DNA of 64,000 nucleotides from Nitrospira japonica. Lineage in GTDB: Bacteria; Nitrospirota; Thermodesulfovibrionia; UBA6902. Location of the stretch: positions 10,564 to 74,563 of the forward strand of contig DYJL01000008.1 of assembly GCA_020723105.1 (NCBI GenBank). Reading direction: 5' to 3'. Each line of letters opens with the position of its first letter. Within the stretch, counting starts at the first letter, position 1. Made by a program: the position numbers and the translations under genes. The notes below the pieces were generated by a model that ran no database searches, was not told the origin of the DNA, and saw only the letters and a list, made by a program, of their open reading frames with translations. Below are positions 15,316-43,104 of this stretch, in pieces.

Positions 15316-16203
15316 CTACCCCCTTTTTCTTCTTATCCCCATAATTATTCCAGCCTCTATCCCCAGTGTGCCTATGAAAGCAAGCACCGGATAAAAATAT
15401 ATAGTCTCTTTCTCCTCTGTCTCAAGGGCAACATAGTACCATGTAGAGACAACCTTTCTACCGCCCCTGTCACCTTCAGAGCCATTCCATACTGCAAGAG
15501 AAAGTGGGGTGACGCTGCCTTCCCTGAAAACAACGTCGAATTTATCCTGAGATGTCAGGGGCCGCTTAAACACAACAAACCATTTCCCGGACTGCCATTT
15601 TCCGTTACCGCTGATGTTTTGGATATCAGCCTTTTCCAGATCAGTTGCGTTTCCAAAGCCCTGAGCGATTATATTTTCAACAGGTGAAATTCTCGCTCTT
15701 GATACAGGATTGCCGACCTCAAGGCCTCCGGCAAATTCATCTGATGTTGCATAGGTACTATGCATGTCATTTGCATTTTGCCATGAAGCTTTCCAGAACC
15801 AGATATTTACAGGATTGTCTTTGTCGCCCATTGCAAAATGCGGTTTGGATGCAGCAGCAGATGAGGGAAATTCCAATGCCACGGCATCAGAGAACTTATC
15901 TACATCTAATGACGAATCTTCTGAGGCATCACTCCACTCAAGCAGAAAGGCCATTTCTTTTGTGTTGTGCAGGGCCCGGACCTTTAAATTTTTTACAGAA
16001 GATTCATAGGTCCTCGGTTTTGCCATAACCTGTGGAGCGAGGGGAATTTCAATGGCAGATGCATTGTTCCAGGCGCTGTTATCAGCTTCAAGGGGCAGAT
16101 CACCCGATACCTTCTTTGCCATGACAACAAGACCCTGGGAATAGGCATCAAAAGACAGGAGGAAAAAACAGAGAAGAGCGAAAATAGTTATCATTGCGAG
16201 CAT
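15316..16203 (-). CDS. Gamma subunit of type II DMSO-reductase-family enzyme (EbdC/NxrC-like, haem b), membrane-anchored
   Basis: A start at MLAMITIFALLCFFLLSFDAYSQG gives a signal peptide. The longer ORF extending to 16431 consists of REP repeats. The EB_dh-like domain and a C-terminal TM helix (FYPVLAFIGTLGIEAGIIMGI) are present. It is adjacent to the beta subunit. Confidence 0.65.
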   Translation of the reverse strand: MLAMITIFALLCFFLLSFDAYSQGLVVMAKKVSGDLPLEADNSAWNNASAIEIPLAPQVMAKPRTYESSVKNLKVRALHNTKEMAFLLEWSDASEDSSLDVDKFSDAVALEFPSSAAASKPHFAMGDKDNPVNIWFWKASWQNANDMHSTYATSDEFAGGLEVGNPVSRARISPVENIIAQGFGNATDLEKADIQNISGNGKWQSGKWFVVFKRPLTSQDKFDVVFREGSVTPLSLAVWNGSEGDRGGRKVVSTWYYVALETEEKETIYFYPVLAFIGTLGIEAGIIMGIRRKRG

Positions 16204-16210
16204 AGTGTGC

Positions 16211-16301
16211 TGTCCGTAACAGTTCTTTACACTGTCATTGCGAGGGACGAAGTCCCGAAGCAATCTCACTACGAGATTCCTCGCTTCGCTCGGAATGACA
16301 A
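16211..16301. repeat. REP/MITE-like palindromic element, family A (inverted pair of GTCATTGCGAG...GAAGCAATCTC units)
   Basis: The sequence is CTGTCCGTAACAGTTCTTTACAC-TGTCATTGCGAGGGACGAAGTCCCGAAGCAATCTC-ACTAC-GAGATTCCTCGCTTCGCTCGGAATGACA. It lies in the beta-gamma intergenic spacer. Confidence 0.65.
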
Positions 16302-16345
16302 AGCTGTAAAGATATTTAGCTGACAGGACAATAGGAAAGCAATCT

Positions 16346-16396
16346 TTCTTTTGACTACGAGATTGCTTCACACCCTTTGGGTGTTCGCAATGACAT
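16346..16396. repeat. REP family A single unit (reverse orientation)
   Basis: GAGATTGCTTCACACCCTTTGGGTGTTCGCAATGACA has an internal palindrome CACCC(T/A)AAGGGTG. Confidence 0.55.
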
Positions 16397-16440
16397 CTGA
16401 ACTTGTCTTCATAAATTTGAAATTTTCTCATTATCCCCTC

Positions 16441-17637
16441 CTATGTTATGTTATGCCTGTAGACTTGCAGTTTTTCATCATGGAAGGGCCTGATAAAGAC
16501 AGGCTCTTTTAAGGGCACCTTTACCAACTCTTTACCCTTTTCACCATAACCAGTAACAATGCCCTTTGATACCCTGAATTTTGCGGACCAGAACTCTGTT
16601 GAACCAAATAGCGTCAGAGCCCCCAGCAGGGTTTCATCTTTATGGGCATTTTTGTATGCCGCGACCGCATTCGCAGCATCCGGCCCGAACATCTGTATCA
16701 GATAAGGAAGTGGAACATGTATAGGCGGAATATAATATATATTAGGCTCCAGGCCAAGCTGCGGGTAGAGGGGTAACGCAATCTTCTTGATGTGAACCAG
16801 ATAGTCCACAGGATTTGCAGGGTCCGGCTTATCAGGGGTATGCAGCCAGCCATTAAGTCGTATCCTTCCGATGCAGGTTGTCACACACTGAGTCTGGTGT
16901 CCCTGTTCTGCAAGCGGATAGCAACCAATACATTTTTCAGCTATCTTTGTCGTGTTATTGAAAAGAACTTTTTTATAGGGACAGGCCCTTACGCATTCTC
17001 TGTAGCCTCTGCACCTTTTCTGATCCACAAGGACTATGCCGTCTTCCTCTCTCTTATAGATAGCCTTTCTCGGACAGGCTCCCACACAGGCTGGATATGT
17101 GCAATGGTTGCAAATGCGGGCGAGATAGAAATGCCATACCTTATGAGGCATTGTTATAAAATCACCCTTATCTATTGAGCCAGATGGTTCGTCTTCACCG
17201 ATGTTTGGATGGGCCCAGTCAATTTCCTCAGGGATATAGCCCTGAGCCACCTGCCCCTTTGGTGCAGCCTCAAATATTGTATTGCCTTTATAAACTTTCC
17301 CTTCCCATTTTTGAGGGCCCAGTAAATCCAGTATCTTCACGTCCCACGCCAGCGGATAAAACCCATACGGCTTTGACTCAACATTGTTCCAGAACATATA
17401 CTCCTGCCCCTTGCCCGTGGTCCATGTGTGTTTGCATGCCATGGTGCAGGTCTGGCAGGCAATGCACTTGTTGATGTCGAATACCGCGGCAAACTGTTTC
17501 TGCGGCCTTACTTCTTCGTATGGATAATACATCTCCCTCTGAATCTGCCAGTTCTTTACTTTATTTTTAGCCATTAATCCCTTACCTCCGTAGATTGCTT
17601 CGTCATCCCGAAGAATCGGAATTCCTCGCAATGACAA
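16441..17637 (-). CDS. Beta (Fe-S) subunit of Nar/Nxr-type oxidoreductase (NarH/NxrB-like)
   Basis: CIACQTCTMACKHTWTTGKGQEYMFWNNVESKPYGFYP matches the NarH N-terminus. Further ferredoxin motifs are CNHCTYPACVGACP and CRGYRECVRACP, plus CIGC...C. Confidence 0.9.
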   Translation of the reverse strand: MSLRGIPILRDDEAIYGGKGLMAKNKVKNWQIQREMYYPYEEVRPQKQFAAVFDINKCIACQTCTMACKHTWTTGKGQEYMFWNNVESKPYGFYPLAWDVKILDLLGPQKWEGKVYKGNTIFEAAPKGQVAQGYIPEEIDWAHPNIGEDEPSGSIDKGDFITMPHKVWHFYLARICNHCTYPACVGACPRKAIYKREEDGIVLVDQKRCRGYRECVRACPYKKVLFNNTTKIAEKCIGCYPLAEQGHQTQCVTTCIGRIRLNGWLHTPDKPDPANPVDYLVHIKKIALPLYPQLGLEPNIYYIPPIHVPLPYLIQMFGPDAANAVAAYKNAHKDETLLGALTLFGSTEFWSAKFRVSKGIVTGYGEKGKELVKVPLKEPVFIRPFHDEKLQVYRHNIT

Positions 17638-17671
17638 TCATGTTATATGTCATTGCGAGCGAAGCAATCTC
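17591..17671. repeat. REP family A inverted pair in alpha-beta intergenic spacer
   Basis: The sequence is GTAGATTGCTTCGTCATCCCGAAGAATCGGAATTCCTCGCAATGACA-ATCATGTTATATG-TCATTGCGAGCGAAGCAATCTC. Confidence 0.6.
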
Positions 17672-27092: not shown

Positions 27093-27148
27093 AACCTCGT
27101 TATACATGTTGCTTGTAATCCATAAAATTACTCTGTTCCAATATTTAC

Positions 27149-27310
27149 AGACATGGAAGGCTGTCTCAGAATTTCTATACGACACCTTTGAAAAGGGATT
27201 AGGGGATAGGGAGTAGGGGGTAGAAGAAAAGAAATAAGAAAAACAGCTTGAGGCAAAAATGTAATATGCCTTTTGTCGTTTATAGAAATTCTGAGACAGT
27301 CTTCCATGTC
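27149..27310. repeat. Family B palindromic element (162 bp) with 35-bp inverted arms and G-rich core
   Basis: The arms are GACATGGAAGGCTGTCTCAGAATTTCTATACGACA ... TGTCGTTTATAGAAATTCTGAGACAGTCTTCCATGTC. The core contains AGGGATTAGGGGATAGGGAGTAGGGGGTAG. Confidence 0.65.
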
Positions 27311-27447
27311 AGAAAAAGATCTTAAATATCTTTTAAGATGTTTGATTAATAACATAAATATTACCCCTGAGAAAGTATGGCTCAGAAGCAATGAATTTAT
27401 AATTGCCTGAGCTTTTGATGAAATGATAATTTAAAAAAGAGTGGAAG

Positions 27448-28200
27448 TCAGTAACTTAAGTTACAGGACTTTTCTGAGATGGATCCGGAGAGTTTTCTTT
27501 TGTCTATTTTGAAACCTTTTATATTGCTGTCAATGATGATGCCCTGTTTTTTCAGCCTTGACATGGCGCGGGAGACAACTTCCCGGACCGTTCCTGTCAT
27601 TGCGGCAATATCCTGATGGGTTACAGTAAGTACCACTGTGTTGTTATCAGGCGCTTTTTCCTCTGCTAAACGTAAAAGTGAAACCATTATTCTTTGTTCT
27701 ACGTCTTTAAATGAAAGGTCTTCTACAAGCCCCGACATGTATTTTATCCTGCTGCATAACCCGGTTATGATTTTCATGCCCATTTCACTGATGCCGGCCA
27801 TGATTAATTCCTTGAATTCCTTTACAGGTATGACAACAAGTTCGGAATCTTCAAGCGCCACAGCGCTGACAGAATATGTCTTATCGAGATAAAGCGGGGC
27901 GCAGCAGAAGTAGTCATGAACGCCCATGATTTTAATTAAAAGCTCTCTTCCCTCAGGTGAAGTCTTAAAGAGCTTTATCCGTCCTGACTTGATTACAAAA
28001 AGAAATTTTACAGAGTCAGCTTCCCGGAACAGGATATCATTTTTTGCAAACCGTTTCAGGCCGGCTTGTCCCCCGATGACGGCAAGTTCATCGTCTTTCA
28101 GTCCTGACAGACAGGGAAGTTTGCGCAGATCCTGAAATGTTTTTGAAACAGGTTTCGACATGGATGCATTAGCGTATATATTTAATGCCGTTTCTGTCAA
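27448..28200 (-). CDS. Crp/Fnr-family transcriptional regulator
   Basis: A cNMP-binding beta-roll (ILFREADSVKFLFVIKSGRIKL) is followed by a C-terminal HTH (HQDIAAMTGTVREVVSRAMSRLKKQGII). Confidence 0.8.
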   Translation of the reverse strand: MTETALNIYANASMSKPVSKTFQDLRKLPCLSGLKDDELAVIGGQAGLKRFAKNDILFREADSVKFLFVIKSGRIKLFKTSPEGRELLIKIMGVHDYFCCAPLYLDKTYSVSAVALEDSELVVIPVKEFKELIMAGISEMGMKIITGLCSRIKYMSGLVEDLSFKDVEQRIMVSLLRLAEEKAPDNNTVVLTVTHQDIAAMTGTVREVVSRAMSRLKKQGIIIDSNIKGFKIDKRKLSGSISEKSCNLSY

Positions 28201-28248
28201 CCCTCTTTCTCCTTGAAAAAGCAGGGATAAAAGAGGTTAAATACACAA

Positions 28249-28722
28249 GTGGACAACAAGGCAAAGCGGCATATCATTAAATTAGTCAGCAGGTTTCCCT
28301 CAAAAGAATCGGCTCTCCTGCCAGCGCTTGCTCTGCTTCAGAAAAAATACGGGTATATCGCCGAAGACGATTTAGTTGAGCTGTCAGAGATAATGAATCT
28401 TCCAGAGGCCCGCGTATTCAGCACGGCCAGTTTTTATTCGATGTTAAGTTTAAAAAAAACGGGCAGATACCATATACAGGTTTGCATGAATGTGGTCTGC
28501 TCTCTTCTCAATGGTGCATCCCTGCTGAGTTACATTTCAGAGAAGCTCGGCATCAGGGAGGGTGAAGTAACCCCTGACGGACTGTTCAGCCTTGCCTCTG
28601 TTGAATGTCTCGGTTCCTGCGGTTATGCCCCGGCGATCCAGATCAATATGGAACATTATGAAAATATAAGTATTGAAAAAGTGGATGGGCTAATCGAGGC
28701 GATAAAGAAAAAGGAAAGATAG
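28249..28722 (+). CDS. NuoE/FdsG/HoxE-like 2Fe-2S subunit
   Basis: GTG start. The thioredoxin-like 2Fe-2S motif C-x4-C...C-x3-C is present (QVCMNVVCS ... ECLGSCGYAP). Confidence 0.8.
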   Translation: MDNKAKRHIIKLVSRFPSKESALLPALALLQKKYGYIAEDDLVELSEIMNLPEARVFSTASFYSMLSLKKTGRYHIQVCMNVVCSLLNGASLLSYISEKLGIREGEVTPDGLFSLASVECLGSCGYAPAIQINMEHYENISIEKVDGLIEAIKKKER

Positions 28723-28723
28723 C

Positions 28724-29962
28724 TTGGAAAAAATATTATCAAGAAACATAAACGTACCTGATTCTCAATCTCTTGACGTATACATAAAACGCGGCGGATA
28801 CGACGCCCTGAAAAAAGCCCTCTCACTTCCCTCTGAAAAAGTTATTTCAATTGTTGCAGAGTCCGGACTGAGGGGCCGGGGCGGAGCGGGTTTTCCAGCA
28901 GGCATGAAATGGAAATTGCTGCCTGCAGACAGAACCGCTGCAAGATATCTCATATGCAATGCAGATGAGGGAGAGCCCGGCACTTTTAAGGACCGGCAGA
29001 TAATAGAATTGGATCCGCATCTCCTGATCGAAGGGATGACCATTGCCGCATATGCAATTGGAGCCTGCAGGGGGTTTATCTATATCAGGGGAGAATATGA
29101 CTGGATAGCCAGGGTTCTCGTCAGGGCGCTTAGAGAGGCTGAGGATAAGGGTTTCAGTGGTGTTGATATATTAAATTCAGGCCATCAGTTTTGCATAGAT
29201 GTGTTCAGAGGAGCCGGATCTTATATATGCGGAGAAGAAACAGCCCTTATTGAATCCCTCGAAGGCAAGGCCGGGAGACCGAGATTAAAACCGCCGTTTC
29301 CGGCTGCCTTTGGACTTTATGGCCAGCCGACTGTAGTGCAGAACGTTGCAACTCTTGCATCTATCCCGTTTATCATTAACATGGGACCGGATGTCTTCAA
29401 GTCTTTCGGAAAGCCCCGAAGCTACGGAACAATGCTGTTTGGCATTTGCGGGCACGTAAATAAATCCGGCGTGTATGAATATCCGATGGGTACGTCTCTC
29501 AAAAAATTAATATATGAGGTTGCGGGCGGAATCAAAGATAACAAAAAATTAAAGGCCGTTATTCCCGGAGGACTTTCAGCCCCGATACTGAAGGCAGATG
29601 AGATAGACATCGAAATGGATTTTGATTCTCTTATTGCCGCAGGTTCTATACTCGGGACCGGCGGTATTATTGTATTGGATGAGGACGTTTCCATACCCTT
29701 TGTGGCACAGAAGGCAGCCAGGTTTTTTGCCCATGAATCCTGCGGGCAGTGCACCCCCTGCCGGGAGGGGACCAGCATGCTTAAACTTCTGATAGACCGG
29801 ATAGCTGCAGCTGAGGGAAGTTTGGCAGACATTGAACAGGTACTGAGATTGTGCCGCTATATCAAAGGTTCAACCCTGTGCGCCATGGGCGACGCCGCAG
29901 CCTTCTCAGTCGGGACGATGGTGAAGAAATTCAGGGAGGAGTTTGAGGCGTTGGTGAAATGA
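28724..29962 (+). CDS. NuoF/FdsB/HoxF-like NAD(H)-binding FMN/4Fe-4S subunit
   Basis: TTG start. GRGGAGFPAGMKW matches the FMN/NADH site. C-terminal ESCGQCTPCREG is the 4Fe-4S motif. Confidence 0.85.
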   Translation: MEKILSRNINVPDSQSLDVYIKRGGYDALKKALSLPSEKVISIVAESGLRGRGGAGFPAGMKWKLLPADRTAARYLICNADEGEPGTFKDRQIIELDPHLLIEGMTIAAYAIGACRGFIYIRGEYDWIARVLVRALREAEDKGFSGVDILNSGHQFCIDVFRGAGSYICGEETALIESLEGKAGRPRLKPPFPAAFGLYGQPTVVQNVATLASIPFIINMGPDVFKSFGKPRSYGTMLFGICGHVNKSGVYEYPMGTSLKKLIYEVAGGIKDNKKLKAVIPGGLSAPILKADEIDIEMDFDSLIAAGSILGTGGIIVLDEDVSIPFVAQKAARFFAHESCGQCTPCREGTSMLKLLIDRIAAAEGSLADIEQVLRLCRYIKGSTLCAMGDAAAFSVGTMVKKFREEFEALVK

Positions 29963-29994
29963 AACATAACCAATAATAATATTTGACAGGAGAT

Positions 29995-30133
29995 CGAAAA
30001 ATAGAGATAGAGGGTTGTCATTGCGAGCAAAGCGAAGCAATCTCGTCTTTTTCAATGAGATTGCCACGAACCCTTCGGGTTCTCGCAATGACAGGTAGAA
30101 TATAGTGTTTCTCATTCTATCTCTATTTTTCGG
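29995..30133. mobile_element. MITE-like element: 17-bp terminal inverted repeats flanking a REP-family-A hairpin pair
   Basis: Left TIR is CGAAAAATAGAGATAGA (29995-30011). Right TIR CCGAAAAATAGAGATAGAA is the reverse complement at 30116-30134. The interior is GTCATTGCGAGCAAAGCGAAGCAATCTC...GAGATTGCC...CTCGCAATGAC. It produces the spurious ORF 29906-30115 (RLLRFARNDN). Confidence 0.6.
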
Positions 30134-30150
30134 AGGAGAGGTAATAAAAA

Positions 30151-30339
30151 ATGTGTGAATCCAATGTGTATATTGAAAAAGACGGTAAGGAAGAGCTCTA
30201 TCTGGAAAACGTTGACATTCTAAAACCCGGGGATGGAAAAATATTTATGAGAAATCTCTTTGGGGAACAAAAGATTTTTGAAGGCGTAATAAAAGAGATA
30301 TCCCTTATCAAGCACAAGATAGTTCTGACGAAGGGCTGA
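30151..30339 (+). CDS. CooT-family small protein (putative Ni-binding/accessory)
   Basis: It is 62 aa and begins MCESNVYI, where the conserved Cys2 matches the CooT-family N-terminal signature. It lies 11 nt upstream of the next gene. Confidence 0.5.
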   Translation: MCESNVYIEKDGKEELYLENVDILKPGDGKIFMRNLFGEQKIFEGVIKEISLIKHKIVLTKG

Positions 30340-30345
30340 CGGCGC

Positions 30346-31131
30346 ATGCAGTTCATGCGTATTATTACACAGGGCGCACATCAGGCCTTCTTTAACATGG
30401 CGCTTGATGAAGCCATATCAGAGGCTGTAAGGCAGAACCTTTCTCCTGCCACGCTGAGATTATATCAATGGGACCGGCCGTCAGTTACACTGGGATATTT
30501 TCAGAAGATATCAGAGATTAACATGCCTTACTGCATTGAAAAGGGATATCCTGTCGTAAGAAGGGCCACAGGAGGCAGGGCTATCCTGCATGATGCAGAA
30601 CTCACCTACAGCCTTTCCTCATCAAAAAACTTTCCTCTGTTTAAGGGCAGCCTGCTTGAAAATTATGCTGTCATCAGTAAGGCGCTTGTATGCGGACTGA
30701 ACCATGCAGGGATAAAGGCGCAGGTTTCTTTTACAAGGAAACGGGGCCTCAATCAAAGAAATCCTGCATGTTTTAAATCTGTTTCCTTCGGAGAGGTAAT
30801 GCTTGATGGCAGAAAAGTAATCGGCAGCGCCCAAAGACGTTATCACAATGGATTTCTACAGCAAGGCTCTGTTCTCCTGAACTTTCATCCGCGGGAATTA
30901 TGTAACGTGCTGAATGCAGGGAAGGAAGAAGATTTCAACGGGATCGGTTCAATCAGTAATACAGACAGGGAAGTGAGTTTTAATGATTTGACAGGCCCGT
31001 TAAAAGAGGCCTTTGAAAAAAAATTAAATATTAAATTGATTTCTGACAGGCCCTCTAAATTTGAACTCAGCCTTGCCGGAGAGCTTGAGGAGAAAAAATA
31101 TTCGACCCGGGAGTGGAATTTCCTGCGGTAG
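30346..31131 (+). CDS. Lipoate-protein ligase / octanoyltransferase family (LplA/LipM-like)
   Basis: The BPL_LplA_LipB catalytic motifs RRATGGRAILHD and GRKVIGSAQRR are present. Confidence 0.7.
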   Translation: MQFMRIITQGAHQAFFNMALDEAISEAVRQNLSPATLRLYQWDRPSVTLGYFQKISEINMPYCIEKGYPVVRRATGGRAILHDAELTYSLSSSKNFPLFKGSLLENYAVISKALVCGLNHAGIKAQVSFTRKRGLNQRNPACFKSVSFGEVMLDGRKVIGSAQRRYHNGFLQQGSVLLNFHPRELCNVLNAGKEEDFNGIGSISNTDREVSFNDLTGPLKEAFEKKLNIKLISDRPSKFELSLAGELEEKKYSTREWNFLR

Positions 31132-31143
31132 GTTTATTGGGTA

Positions 31144-32058
31144 CTATATATCATATGTTGCTGTATAGACAGGCGGTTTGACAGTCTTTATGTAATAAAC
31201 GATCAGCGCGCTCCAAGCCACGAGGGAGAGATAATTCTGAAAAATAATGCTTATGACAGACAGCGGGATATTGATAAAAGGCAGCATGCCAAGAGGCATT
31301 ATGCTTATGAGGAAGATAAGGTTTATTGCAATTGCGCCCATGAATATCGCCATGAAAAATAAAAAAGCCTGAGGAGTTCTCTTTAAAAAATTAAACGTAT
31401 TCTTTATAGCATCCACAGCCCCTTTCTCCTCCATGACTGCCGATAAAATAGAGTAAACCATGAACATGAGCCAGGCCAAAAAAATTATGGTGCCAAAAAT
31501 CAAGATGAACAACCTGATGAACGAACTGAAAAATGCTTCAACCGGTGTCTCGGCCCCTGAAAAGCCCTGTGTAAAACCGACGATAAGTCCTCCGGATATG
31601 ATAACGGCAGCAAATAATATAATAAAAAGGAGAAGCTGAATTGCAGTCACCCGGAACAAACAGGAGAAAGTTTTATGGGCTTCTCTGAAAAAGGAAGAAA
31701 GACTGAACCTGTACTGGATGTTGACAGCAGAATTTTTTAATACTCCAAGGGTCCCGCCGAGTGAATACAGGATTATTGTGAATACAAATATTGAATAAAT
31801 AATAAATGAAATTCCGATGAGGAAGACAAAGCCGAGATATTTTGATAAAAGGTTGAACGGATCATCCATAAAATCAGGCAGTAAATCCATAGTATGAGAC
31901 AGGTCCCATCCGAGATATGTAACAGCGGCAATCAGCGGCAGTCCCAGAAAAAAAAGAAGGCTTAGAAAATTAATTATCACTACAGCAATCCGCAGGAATA
32001 CGAGCTGATAATTCCTGTTGGCGAGGGTAAAACCTTCTTTAAGGCAGTCAATTAGCAT
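31144..32058 (-). CDS. Polytopic membrane protein, unknown function
   Basis: 304 aa with at least 6 hydrophobic helices and no recognisable motif. Confidence 0.5.
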   Translation of the reverse strand: MLIDCLKEGFTLANRNYQLVFLRIAVVIINFLSLLFFLGLPLIAAVTYLGWDLSHTMDLLPDFMDDPFNLLSKYLGFVFLIGISFIIYSIFVFTIILYSLGGTLGVLKNSAVNIQYRFSLSSFFREAHKTFSCLFRVTAIQLLLFIILFAAVIISGGLIVGFTQGFSGAETPVEAFFSSFIRLFILIFGTIIFLAWLMFMVYSILSAVMEEKGAVDAIKNTFNFLKRTPQAFLFFMAIFMGAIAINLIFLISIMPLGMLPFINIPLSVISIIFQNYLSLVAWSALIVYYIKTVKPPVYTATYDI

Positions 32059-32135
32059 AATGGTTTTTTAGTTTAGGATGACATGGTCCAAAAGTCAATT
32101 CTTGAAAAACATTCTGATTAACTATAGAATCTTAT

Positions 32136-32927
32136 TTGATGAGTATTCTTAATGAAATTATTAAAAACAAAAGGGAAGAGTTGCAGGCTGTTAAAAGTTC
32201 TGTGCCCCTCGCTGAACTGAAAGCCAGGATTAAAGATGCTGCGGCTACAAGGTCCTTCAAGGCTGCGATTAAGAGAGAGATAAACAGCCCTGTTAAACTT
32301 ATCGCCGAGCTCAAAAAAGCCTCCCCTTCAAAGGGATTGATAAGGAAGGATTTCAACCTGTCGGAGATAGTATCTGTTTACAACAGGAAGGATGTGGCTG
32401 CCATATCAGTCCTTACGGAGGAACGATTTTTTTCCGGCAAACTTGACTATCTTAACAGGGCGAGGAAGAGGACGCTGAAGCCCTTATTGCGGAAGGATTT
32501 TATCTTCGATAATTATCAGATTTATGAATCCAGGGTGCATAATGCTGACGCAGTCCTGCTTATAGTGGCAGCTCTGGAGAAAGTTCAACTCAGCGACCTT
32601 TATGAATTATCCAGGGAACTGGATCTGGACTGCCTTGTAGAAATTCACGACTGGAAAGAGCTTGATACAGCGCTGTACTGCGGGGCGGAAATAATCGGGA
32701 TAAATAACAGAGATCTGAAGACCTTGAATATAAGTTTAAGAAACACGCTGGACCTCTTAAAGGATATTCCGGATGACAGGATTGTGGTAAGTGAAAGCGG
32801 AATAGACAAGAGGTCTGATGTTGAAGCCCTTGAGGCTACAAGGACAGATGCAATGCTTATTGGTACGGCTATAATGAAGGCTGAGGATATAGGGGAAAAA
32901 ATTAATGAACTGACGGGCAAATCATAG
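32136..32927 (+). CDS. trpC: Indole-3-glycerol phosphate synthase
   Basis: TrpC motifs are present: LIAELKKASPSKG, DAVLLIVAAL, LVEIHD and IGINNRDL. Confidence 0.85.
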   Translation: MMSILNEIIKNKREELQAVKSSVPLAELKARIKDAAATRSFKAAIKREINSPVKLIAELKKASPSKGLIRKDFNLSEIVSVYNRKDVAAISVLTEERFFSGKLDYLNRARKRTLKPLLRKDFIFDNYQIYESRVHNADAVLLIVAALEKVQLSDLYELSRELDLDCLVEIHDWKELDTALYCGAEIIGINNRDLKTLNISLRNTLDLLKDIPDDRIVVSESGIDKRSDVEALEATRTDAMLIGTAIMKAEDIGEKINELTGKS

Positions 32928-32955
32928 GCGTGGATGGTCATTCCCACGAAAGTGG

Positions 32956-33046
32956 GAATCCGGAAGAAAATGGATTCTCGCCACGGCGAGTCGCTGTGGT
33001 GACCGCATCAGGTGCGGAATGACAGAGAATGGAATCATTAGAAGGA
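32956..33046. repeat. Diverged member of REP-family-A palindrome
   Basis: GTCATTCCCACGAAAGTGGGAATCC ... GGATTCTCGCC...GCGGAATGACAG is an inverted pair with an internal palindrome. Confidence 0.45.
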
Positions 33047-33053
33047 GAAACAC

Positions 33054-33935
33054 ATGAAAACTCTCATCGAAAAAGCAAATATACTTATTGAGTCTCTGCC
33101 TTTCATAAAAAAGTTTTACGGTAAAACGTTTGTTATCAAATACGGCGGGGCTGCCATGGTAGATGAGGATTTAAAACAGGCCTTTGCACAGGATGTGGTA
33201 CTCCTGAATTTTATTGGCATCAAGCCGGTCATAGTGCATGGCGGAGGGCCGAAGATAAACAAGGTTATGGAGCAAATGGGGAAAAAGCCCACATTCATTC
33301 ACGGGCAGCGTTTTACTGACAGTGAGACTATAGATATTGTAGAGATGGTGCTTGGAGGCCTTATCAACAAGCAGATTGTTTCCCTGATAAACAGGCATGG
33401 TGGACGTTCTATCGGATTGAGCGGAAAAGACGGCAACCTTATAAAGGCAAAGAAAAAGGTGATCAGAAAAGTTTTGCCTGAAACAGGAGCGCCGGAGATT
33501 ATTGATCTGGGGCTCGTAGGAGAGGTTGAAAAGGTAAACCCTCAGATCCTTTTTTCAATGGAGAGAGACGGTTTTATTCCTGTAATCGCCCCGATCAGCG
33601 CAGGGCGGAACAATGAGACGCTCAACATCAATGCAGATTATGTGGCCGGATCAGTCGCCTCAGCATTAAAGGCGGAGAAACTGATTCTGCTGACAGATGT
33701 TGAAGGAATCAAAGACAGGAAAAACAAACTGCTCCCAACATTGGATACAAAGAAAATCAAATCCCTCGTCTCAAACGGCACGATATCAGGAGGCATGCTC
33801 CCAAAAGTTCAGGCCTGCCAGAGCGCTATTGAAGGAGAAGTCAGGAAGACACATATAATAGACGGACGGGTGCCTCACGCATTACTGCTTGAGATATTTA
33901 CTGAAAAAGGAATCGGGACGGAGATAGTGAAGTAG
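33054..33935 (+). CDS. argB: Acetylglutamate kinase
   Basis: ArgB motifs are present: FVIKYGGAAM, PVIVHGGGPKI, GQRFTD and LTDVEG. Confidence 0.9.
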   Translation: MKTLIEKANILIESLPFIKKFYGKTFVIKYGGAAMVDEDLKQAFAQDVVLLNFIGIKPVIVHGGGPKINKVMEQMGKKPTFIHGQRFTDSETIDIVEMVLGGLINKQIVSLINRHGGRSIGLSGKDGNLIKAKKKVIRKVLPETGAPEIIDLGLVGEVEKVNPQILFSMERDGFIPVIAPISAGRNNETLNINADYVAGSVASALKAEKLILLTDVEGIKDRKNKLLPTLDTKKIKSLVSNGTISGGMLPKVQACQSAIEGEVRKTHIIDGRVPHALLLEIFTEKGIGTEIVK

Positions 33936-42799: not shown

Positions 42800-42963
42800 A
42801 GTATCTCCTTTTTAAGTGGTTTTTACTGATTTGTTGATAACATGTTACCTGATAACTTTGAAGAGAAAATGAATAAAATATGAAGATTATGTGAAGATTG
42901 TGAGTCCATGATATTTTTTTGCCCGGATGAAATGATATACTATTGTCCTGTCAGCTAAATATC

Positions 42964-43064
42964 TTTACAGCTTTGTCATTCCGAGCGAAGCGAGGAATCT
43001 CGTAGTGAGATTGCTTTGGGATTTCGTCCCTTGCAATGACAGTGTAAAGAACTGTTACGGACAG
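42964..43064. repeat. REP-family-A palindromic element (mirror copy of 16211-16301)
   Basis: The sequence is CTTTACAGCTTTGTCATTCCGAGCGAAGCGAGGAATCTC-GTAGT-GAGATTGC...CTTGCAATGACAGTGTAAAGAACTGTTACGGACAG. The terminal 21 nt is the reverse complement of 16211-16231. Confidence 0.6.
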
Positions 43065-43104
43065 CACACTAGCCAAAAATAATTTTAGAAGGAGTTATGA
43101 ATAG

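Follow-up and report, generated by a model that had tools for sequence, protein, structure and literature searches.

[quoted passage not shown] According to the same sources, they contain no transposase gene, lie mostly between genes and give stably folding transcripts. Small palindromes can occur inside such a frame: in Coxiella burnetii, the MITE QMITE2 harbours a repetitive extragenic palindrome of the GTAG type (PMC10969869). Here we describe a 140-nt block at 29994-30133 of the window (the whole 64-kb stretch of Thermodesulfovibrionia DNA that was analysed), located in the spacer between NuoF and cooT. We identify it with high confidence as a non-autonomous DNA transposon of the MITE type that duplicated the 6-nt sequence AGGAGA. 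Its termini, its target duplication, its copies at many unrelated loci and its presence or absence between ~96%-identical strains are all directly visible.

An inverted-repeat search returned 17-nt arms, CGAAAAATAGAGATAGA at 29995-30011 and TCTATCTCTATTTTTCG at 30116-30132, which are complementary at 17/17 positions across a gap of 104 nt. No other inverted repeat in the window with arms of 14 nt or more lying within 400 nt is 100% complementary. From outer end to outer end the 17-mers span 138 nt, or 140 nt when the family's terminal C and G positions are included. Allowing up to 3 mismatches, the 17-mer occurs at two sites in the 64-kb window, both of them arms of the element, versus 0.23 expected from shuffles; as this is also the only such repeat in the window, pairing of the arms by chance can be excluded. 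Within the NuoF-like/cooT spacer the arms enclose a double hairpin, GTCATTGCGAG...CTCGCAATGAC, whose inner pair, TGTCATTGCGAG (30016-30027) and CTCGCAATGACA (30082-30093), is 12 nt long and 100% complementary. The original prediction had called perfect 17-bp TIRs around an inner hairpin pair, and both are present, the right-hand arm given there as about 30116-30134 being at most 2 bases off. The features of the element and its target are as follows.

29988-29993, plus strand: left target-site duplication AGGAGA, single in the L119 empty site, where two blastn high-scoring pairs (HSPs) overlap (L119 2983-2988)
29994-30011, plus strand: left TIR of 18 nt, TCGAAAAATAGAGATAGA (family consensus CCGAAAAATAGAGATAGA)
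30012-30016, plus strand: short left linker GGGTT, which is AAGTT or AAATT in most copies of the oriented-element layout
30017-30045 (the unit itself 30017-30043), plus strand: family-A hairpin unit 1, GTC-ATTGC-GAG..GAA-GCAAT-CTC, with a 5-bp stem that covaries across 77 distinct units
30046-30055, plus strand: inter-unit spacer TCTTTTTCAA
30056-30092, minus strand: family-A hairpin unit 2, inverted, with an inner hairpin GAACCC-TTC-GGGTTC
30093-30115, plus strand: long right linker AGGTAGAATATAGTGTTTCTCAT, a subfamily marker common to L061 and L126
30116-30133, plus strand: right TIR of 18 nt, TCTATCTCTATTTTTCGG, an end also found in the independent assembly L001
30134-30139, plus strand: right target-site duplication AGGAGA, which with the next GG forms the putative cooT Shine-Dalgarno sequence (ATG at 30151)

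The outermost left base is T in the window copy and C in the consensus, and the junctions of the window copy read, in order, AGGAGA / T-CGAAAA...TTTTCG-G / AGGAGA. The only ORFs that run into the element are short, at 40-69 aa, and it is non-coding, in agreement with the original prediction. The computed RNA fold has a dG of -61.6 kcal/mol (z = -6.7) and the single-stranded DNA fold a dG of -37.9 kcal/mol (z = -8.7). Consensus scans revealed no promoter or terminator inside the element, and Rfam gave 0 matches for the whole window at gathering scores and 0 over 29940-30200 at E up to 10.

The genes on either side are identifiable from their domains. The ORF at 28724-29962 matches Complex1_51K and NADH_4Fe-4S and is therefore NuoF-like; its upstream neighbour is a NuoE-like 2Fe-2S gene. 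On the other side, the ORF at 30151-30339 matches CooT (PF10133), with an LplA-type ligase gene next downstream. These matches confirm the predicted position between a nuoF-like and a cooT-like gene.

A closely related contig provides the empty site. L119 (Logan contig SRR22387929_2594252) encodes a CooT that is 97% identical to that of the window and has the same gene order (Usp, Crp, NuoE-like, NuoF-like, CooT, LplA, a gene of unknown function and IGPS), with a NuoF-cooT spacer of 43 nt versus 188 nt in the window. In blastn, L119 375-2988 aligned with window 27380-29993 at 96.4% identity and L119 2983-6189 with window 30134-33365 at 96.0% identity. The overlap between these HSPs is exactly 6 nt, AGGAGA, and exactly 140 nt of the window, 29994-30133, stay unmatched. 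Without the element and with one AGGAGA, the L119 junction reads ...TTTGACAGGAGAGGTAAT..., or in a longer reading ...ATATTTGACAGGAGAGGTAATAAAAAAATG. The sequence of the empty site had been predicted from the duplication ahead of L119, and the sole mismatch is an extra A in the downstream poly-A, outside the junction. A difference of this form between L119 and the window is what a transposon typically leaves when it inserts and duplicates a 6-nt target. The filled site was also recovered in a second, independent assembly (Logan SRR13164373, contig L001), which runs from window position 30103 through the right arm into cooT.

The insertion is recent and landed on the cooT ribosome-binding site. 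Together with the terminal CGG of the element, the right-hand AGGAGA gives CGGAGGAGAGG, followed by 11 nt and then the ATG; the original distance to the ATG is kept. Because the target AGGAGA is the presumptive cooT Shine-Dalgarno sequence, its duplication would regenerate the ribosome-binding site, and since it is the right-hand duplicate that restores this site, the translation signals of cooT are left intact. To judge from these signals in the DNA, cooT is probably still translatable, with AGGAGA probably acting in its translation. As a separate observation, cooT follows mscL in other Nitrospirota (L120 at 2870-2930, L130 and L131), where it has its own promoter-like TTGACTGCATCAG... followed by TATACT, whereas in the window and L119 it lies directly after nuoF, with a 43-nt spacer in the empty state. 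This difference in neighbours marks the nuoEF-cooT adjacency as a lineage-specific rearrangement.

The empty site also bears on a different reading of the 140 nt, as a conserved cis-regulatory RNA (attenuator, riboswitch or processing site) of the nuoF-cooT operon. Such an RNA would suit the very stable fold (z = -6.7) and the location on the sense strand of a probably co-transcribed spacer, directly upstream of the ribosome-binding site. The orientation of other family members adds a weak hint in the same direction: among the matches listed, 10 of the 12 copies lying between co-directional genes and having a clear polarity are oriented as the genes are, which hints weakly at orientation-dependent selection. 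However, L119, ~96% identical, has the same spacer with a single AGGAGA and no element, and the spacer is therefore not a conserved regulatory region. Furthermore, the element occurs at dozens of unrelated loci, and Rfam has no match to it at E up to 10. The cooT homologues of other species (L120, L121, L123-125 and L129-131) likewise have no such element, with different genes upstream; because those genes differ, the homologues are uninformative for the NuoF-cooT junction itself. We consider a conserved regulatory RNA very improbable: as a regulator specific to this operon it is refuted, and a secondary, co-opted effect on the mRNA is possible.

Copies elsewhere identify the 140-nt block as a member of a family. 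An exact-match scan of the GTDB species genomes (596 Gb) with the 17-mer returned at least 117 stretches, and at least 77 of the 117 matches listed carry the label Nitrospirota, Thermodesulfovibrionia or similar. Single MAGs hold many of them, with at least 16 loci in JBBIIV01 and at least 9 in JBEPZQ01 among the matches listed. The remaining 40 matches listed are singles across unrelated phyla, which is roughly at chance level given an estimate of ~70 for the full collection. A C precedes the 17-mer in 81/85 Nitrospirota loci versus 7/40 other hits among the matches listed, and in the aligned hits of this set the flanks are unrelated between copies, with homology beginning at (C)CGAAAAATAG.

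Requiring a second arm with at most 3 mismatches, we counted at least 45 complete copies of 93-675 nt, with a mode of 136-140 nt. Among the matches listed, the complete copies have a C before the 17-mer in 43/45 cases and a G after it in 36/45, and 42/45 are intergenic. Nearest to the window copy among the matches listed are L061 (90%), L034 (86%) and L126 (82%), all three from other genomes or metagenomes and from other loci; L126 was the one further copy found by a metagenome scan with a subfamily-specific 22-base pattern. Viral contigs do not contain the 18-mer. The copies share a polarity: one 18-nt end is followed by a linker of ~5 nt (AAGTT or similar), then by unit 1 and, beyond a short spacer, by the inverted unit 2, from which a ~22-nt linker leads to the other 18-nt end. 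Each genome has its own subfamilies, which points to amplification within lineages. The window contains a single copy in its 64 kb. Overall, the family is abundant in Nitrospirota and apparently undescribed.

The target duplication was also examined across the family. When the element is taken as C+17-mer...17-mer+G, one base longer at both ends, exact direct repeats of 6 nt flank 13/45 of the complete copies among the matches listed, with 7 nt in 4/45 and 5 nt in 5/45. With 0-2 extra bases per end, 29/45 of them are flanked by exact direct repeats of 5 nt or more. As a control, left flanks were compared with the right flanks of other copies, and an exact 6-mer was shared in 0/1980 comparisons. 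The duplications thus have a length of 5-8 nt and a varied sequence, and about one third of the copies among the matches listed lack an exact one; this fits old copies, and the length rule is imprecise.

Both the dispersal of the family and the direct duplication speak to the possibility that the block arose on the spot, as a local inverted duplication or fold-back produced by replication template switching at a pre-existing hairpin, and is not mobile. Perfect arms around a centre that is already a hairpin could be read in this way, as could the small palindromes nested in the hairpin loops of L126 and L023. In contrast, the same arms, linkers and layout recur at unrelated loci of many genomes, and the 6-nt target duplication is direct, not inverted. 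Together, the multi-locus family and the direct duplication exclude a fold-back origin, to which we give a negligible probability. The original prediction of a MITE is upheld by the TIRs, the AGGAGA duplication, the multi-locus family and the empty site. Its proposed checks gave an exact 6-nt AGGAGA on both sides of the 140-nt element, an orthologous spacer in ~96%-identical L119 with a single AGGAGA and no element, and a TIR that recurs as the terminus of a multi-copy family at unrelated loci in Nitrospirota/Thermodesulfovibrionia genomes.

Between the termini of this MITE lie two family-A hairpin units, of which 77 distinct examples were found in the window and the retrieved loci. There are 76 units in 498 kb of Nitrospirota loci versus 0 in 278 kb of other DNA. 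The 5-bp stem, A-N-T-N-C / G-N-A-N-T, covaries. Stem position 4 is G-C in 38 of the 77 units, C-G in 15, T-A in 7 and A-T in 4, affording 64 Watson-Crick pairs versus 28.9 expected for independent sides, and at stem position 2 the pair is T-A in 57 units and C-G in 10. The unpaired GTC, CGAG, GAAG and CTC are constant across the units. L061 illustrates the pattern, with compensatory ATTCC/GGAAT in unit 1 and ATTGC/GCAAT in unit 2; as the two stems differ, pairing is conserved within units and not between them. In these respects the units behave like REP sequences. They form inverted doublets of both kinds, with heads outward at 30017-30092 and inward at 17592-17670.

The units and the termini also occur apart from one another. 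In the window, family-A units without the 17-mer TIRs lie at 16190-16396, 17592-17670 and 42975-43040. Conversely, nine complete copies among the matches listed (L030, L023, L005, L060, L083, L098, L078, L042 and L082) have the same termini and no family-A unit; their interiors hold G-rich hairpins, CCCCTCCC...GGGGAGGGG, with different linkers. Similarity between subfamilies is limited to the TIRs. In longer copies (L057, L039, L014, L054, L045, L090 and L094), additional units are nested within the original ones or lie between them. Because the same termini enclose unrelated interiors and the units are found elsewhere without these termini, the element is composite, the very term used in the original prediction. 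One tentative extension, which we regard as possible but doubtful, is that the 18-nt termini act as a carrier frame into which hairpin modules with a mobility of their own (family-A units and G-rich CCCCTCCC/GGGGAGGGG hairpins) have moved time and again, replacing or invading its interior. If so, the units would be a separate mobile system that prefers sites in or beside existing hairpins and also rides inside MITE frames. Separately, in two subfamilies we observed a small palindrome in the loop of the inner hairpin, TCTACGACTCGTAGA in L126 (~905-920) and the related TCGATGACTCGTAGA in L023 (within 46-166), which hints at a process by which hairpin tips gain such palindromes.

The likeness of the units to REP sequences raises the question of whether the whole 140 nt could be a doublet of the REP/BIME/REPIN type, copied as single-stranded hairpins by a RAYT (HUH, Y1), with the 17-nt stem as an extension of the hairpin. 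The inner units do resemble REPs in their conserved unpaired bases, in a 5-bp stem with compensatory changes and in their arrangement as inverted doublets, both ways round and inside operon spacers. The complete element, however, ends in conserved 18-nt TIRs with ~6-nt duplications, one of which is exact and confirmed by the empty site. Single-strand transposition of the HUH/Y1 kind (IS200/IS605, RAYTs) is not known to leave a target duplication, and a RAYT/REPIN mechanism is on that account unfit for the complete element. The same TIRs also enclose interiors that lack a family-A unit. Finally, no small RAYT-like ORF flanked by hairpin units occurs in the window or the retrieved loci, a small sample. 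We therefore judge the REP-type reading of the whole block to be improbable; for the inner units, such a mechanism is possible.

Several further repeats were observed in the window. Two copies, ~98% identical, of a framed element of ~134 nt, TAGTGTGCTGTCC...family-A doublet...GACAGGACAATAG, lie at 16203-16336 and at ~42937-43073 (minus strand), both with TAG at each end. The copy in 16190-16396 interrupts another family-A doublet, so that a hairpin lies in a frame that itself lies in a hairpin. This 207-nt nested repeat block contributes 69 in-frame codons to the 5' end of the ORF at 15316-16431 (minus strand), which encodes the gamma subunit, of EB_dh type, in a DMSO-reductase-family operon. 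The gamma subunit has 371 aa in the window versus 311 aa in a distant orthologue on L127, where the beta subunit is 85% identical. Its start could be an ATG inside the CTCGCAATGAT of the repeat, near 16196, just before a signal-peptide-like ITIFALLCFFLL.

In the same operon, the inward-headed family-A doublet at 17592-17670 fills the spacer between alpha and beta. The beta ORF at 16441-17637 (minus strand) has a spurious, repeat-derived N-terminal extension, MSLRGIPILRDDEAI..., and its real start is likely the ATG at 17574 (MAKNKVKNWQ). In the related operon of L127 the alpha-beta spacer holds a different hairpin repeat, GCTGAGGTCGCCAAGGACGCAGAGG...CTCTGCATTCTCTGCGGTGAAGG (2377-2500), which indicates that this spacer collects different repeat families in each lineage. 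An empty site for other family-A repeats was sought by way of the beta-subunit gene, and the best homologue, 85% identical, is too distant for base-level comparison. The Usp-Crp spacer holds a second MITE-like element of another family at 27144-27316 (27137-27379 in wider limits), with 36-nt arms TTTACAGACATGGAAGGCTGTCTCAGAATTTCTATA that are 92% complementary and 101 nt apart around a G-rich interior. This spacer comprises 48 unrelated nt in L119 versus 243 nt in the window, a polymorphism and not a clean insertion.

For the 140-nt MITE, the data suggest a mechanism of transposition. A transposase supplied in trans would bind the 18-nt ends and make target cuts staggered by ~6 nt, with repair of the gaps producing the duplication; the conserved 18-nt ends and ~6-nt duplications imply both steps on general DDE/MITE biology (PMC10969869, PMC11602168). 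The enzyme would probably be of the DDE type, from a family that gives 5-8 nt duplications. In the element's modular make-up, the termini would serve as the mobility signals, and the inner hairpins are a separable module that also occurs alone and in other frames. A read-through transcript of nuoEF-cooT would gain a very stable predicted hairpin of 140 nt, which could alter mRNA processing or stability, by analogy with Correia and REP elements.

The partner enzyme was sought in ~0.5 Mb of Nitrospirota DNA around the matches listed, and no autonomous IS with these TIRs was found there. No TIR-like pair (at most 5 mismatches) spaced 0.6-4.5 kb apart in the ~0.5 Mb searched encloses a transposase, and an all-against-all blastp of the ORFs in or near unpaired TIRs of this DNA gave no shared ORF. 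The sole candidate with a relaxed TIR pair, L018, was rejected, as it contains an ORF of ordinary appearance, with nothing in it to suggest a transposase, beside the end of a separate element. Literature searches with sequence strings (GTCATTGCGAG, GAAGCAATCTC, the TIR and others) returned only unrelated primer matches, and searches by topic found no MITE report for Nitrospirota/Nitrospirae or Thermodesulfovibrio. The main text of the large prokaryotic MITE survey PMC11602168 mentions neither Nitrospirae nor Thermodesulfovibrio.

The locus offers a base-resolved example of recent MITE activity in Thermodesulfovibrionia, a largely uncultured lineage. An insertion on a ribosome-binding site that the duplication probably restored illustrates how such elements can be tolerated in operons. 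There are practical consequences as well. The family breaks short-read assemblies, as where the Logan contig L001 ends inside the element, and repeats create spurious ORFs such as that at 16441-17637. The termini CCGAAAAATAGAGATAGA and the ~6-nt duplication are usable for masking or as strain markers. The modular frames and covarying REP-like units also provide material for the study of how small hairpin repeats spread.

Set beside known systems, the element agrees with MITEs in its 140-nt length, 17-18-nt TIRs, 6-nt duplication, lack of coding capacity and intergenic location, and also in its multiple copies, strong predicted fold and presence/absence polymorphism. It has every structural feature of a MITE, and a known partner IS alone is missing. 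With no related IS known, it differs from typical MITEs and behaves on present data as a 'type II' or orphan MITE. Correia elements of Neisseria (CREE/NEMIS) have 26-nt TIRs and duplicate TA, whereas the element described here has 18-nt TIRs, a ~6-nt duplication of no fixed sequence and an unrelated sequence. The likeness to Correia elements lies in a size of ~100-155 nt, TIRs, a position beside or between genes, co-transcription and a long hairpin in the mRNA (PMC10969869). BOX elements of Streptococcus pneumoniae (boxA-boxB-boxC; PMC3049150) are similar in having conserved end modules and internal modules that vary in number and kind; the BOX end modules, in contrast to those of the present element, do not amount to simple TIRs accompanied by a ~6-nt duplication, and there is no sequence relationship.

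The inner units alone resemble the REP/BIME/REPIN sequences of Gammaproteobacteria: they are imperfect palindromes of small size, in which the unpaired bases are conserved and the stem covaries, arranged as inverted doublets in intergenic and intra-operon spacers. The classical GTAG head of REPs is absent from the family-A units, and the complete element, unlike REPINs, has TIRs and a target duplication. Overall, the element is ordinary in kind and leaves the current understanding of MITEs unchanged. Its least ordinary aspect, as far as the data allow, is a modular frame with exchangeable hairpin units that apparently spread independently. QMITE2 provides a precedent, as a MITE frame with a REP-like palindrome inside, the palindrome being a separate functional or target module; the sequences and the phylum are different here, and the inner module consists of two inverted units bearing the signature GTC...CTC.
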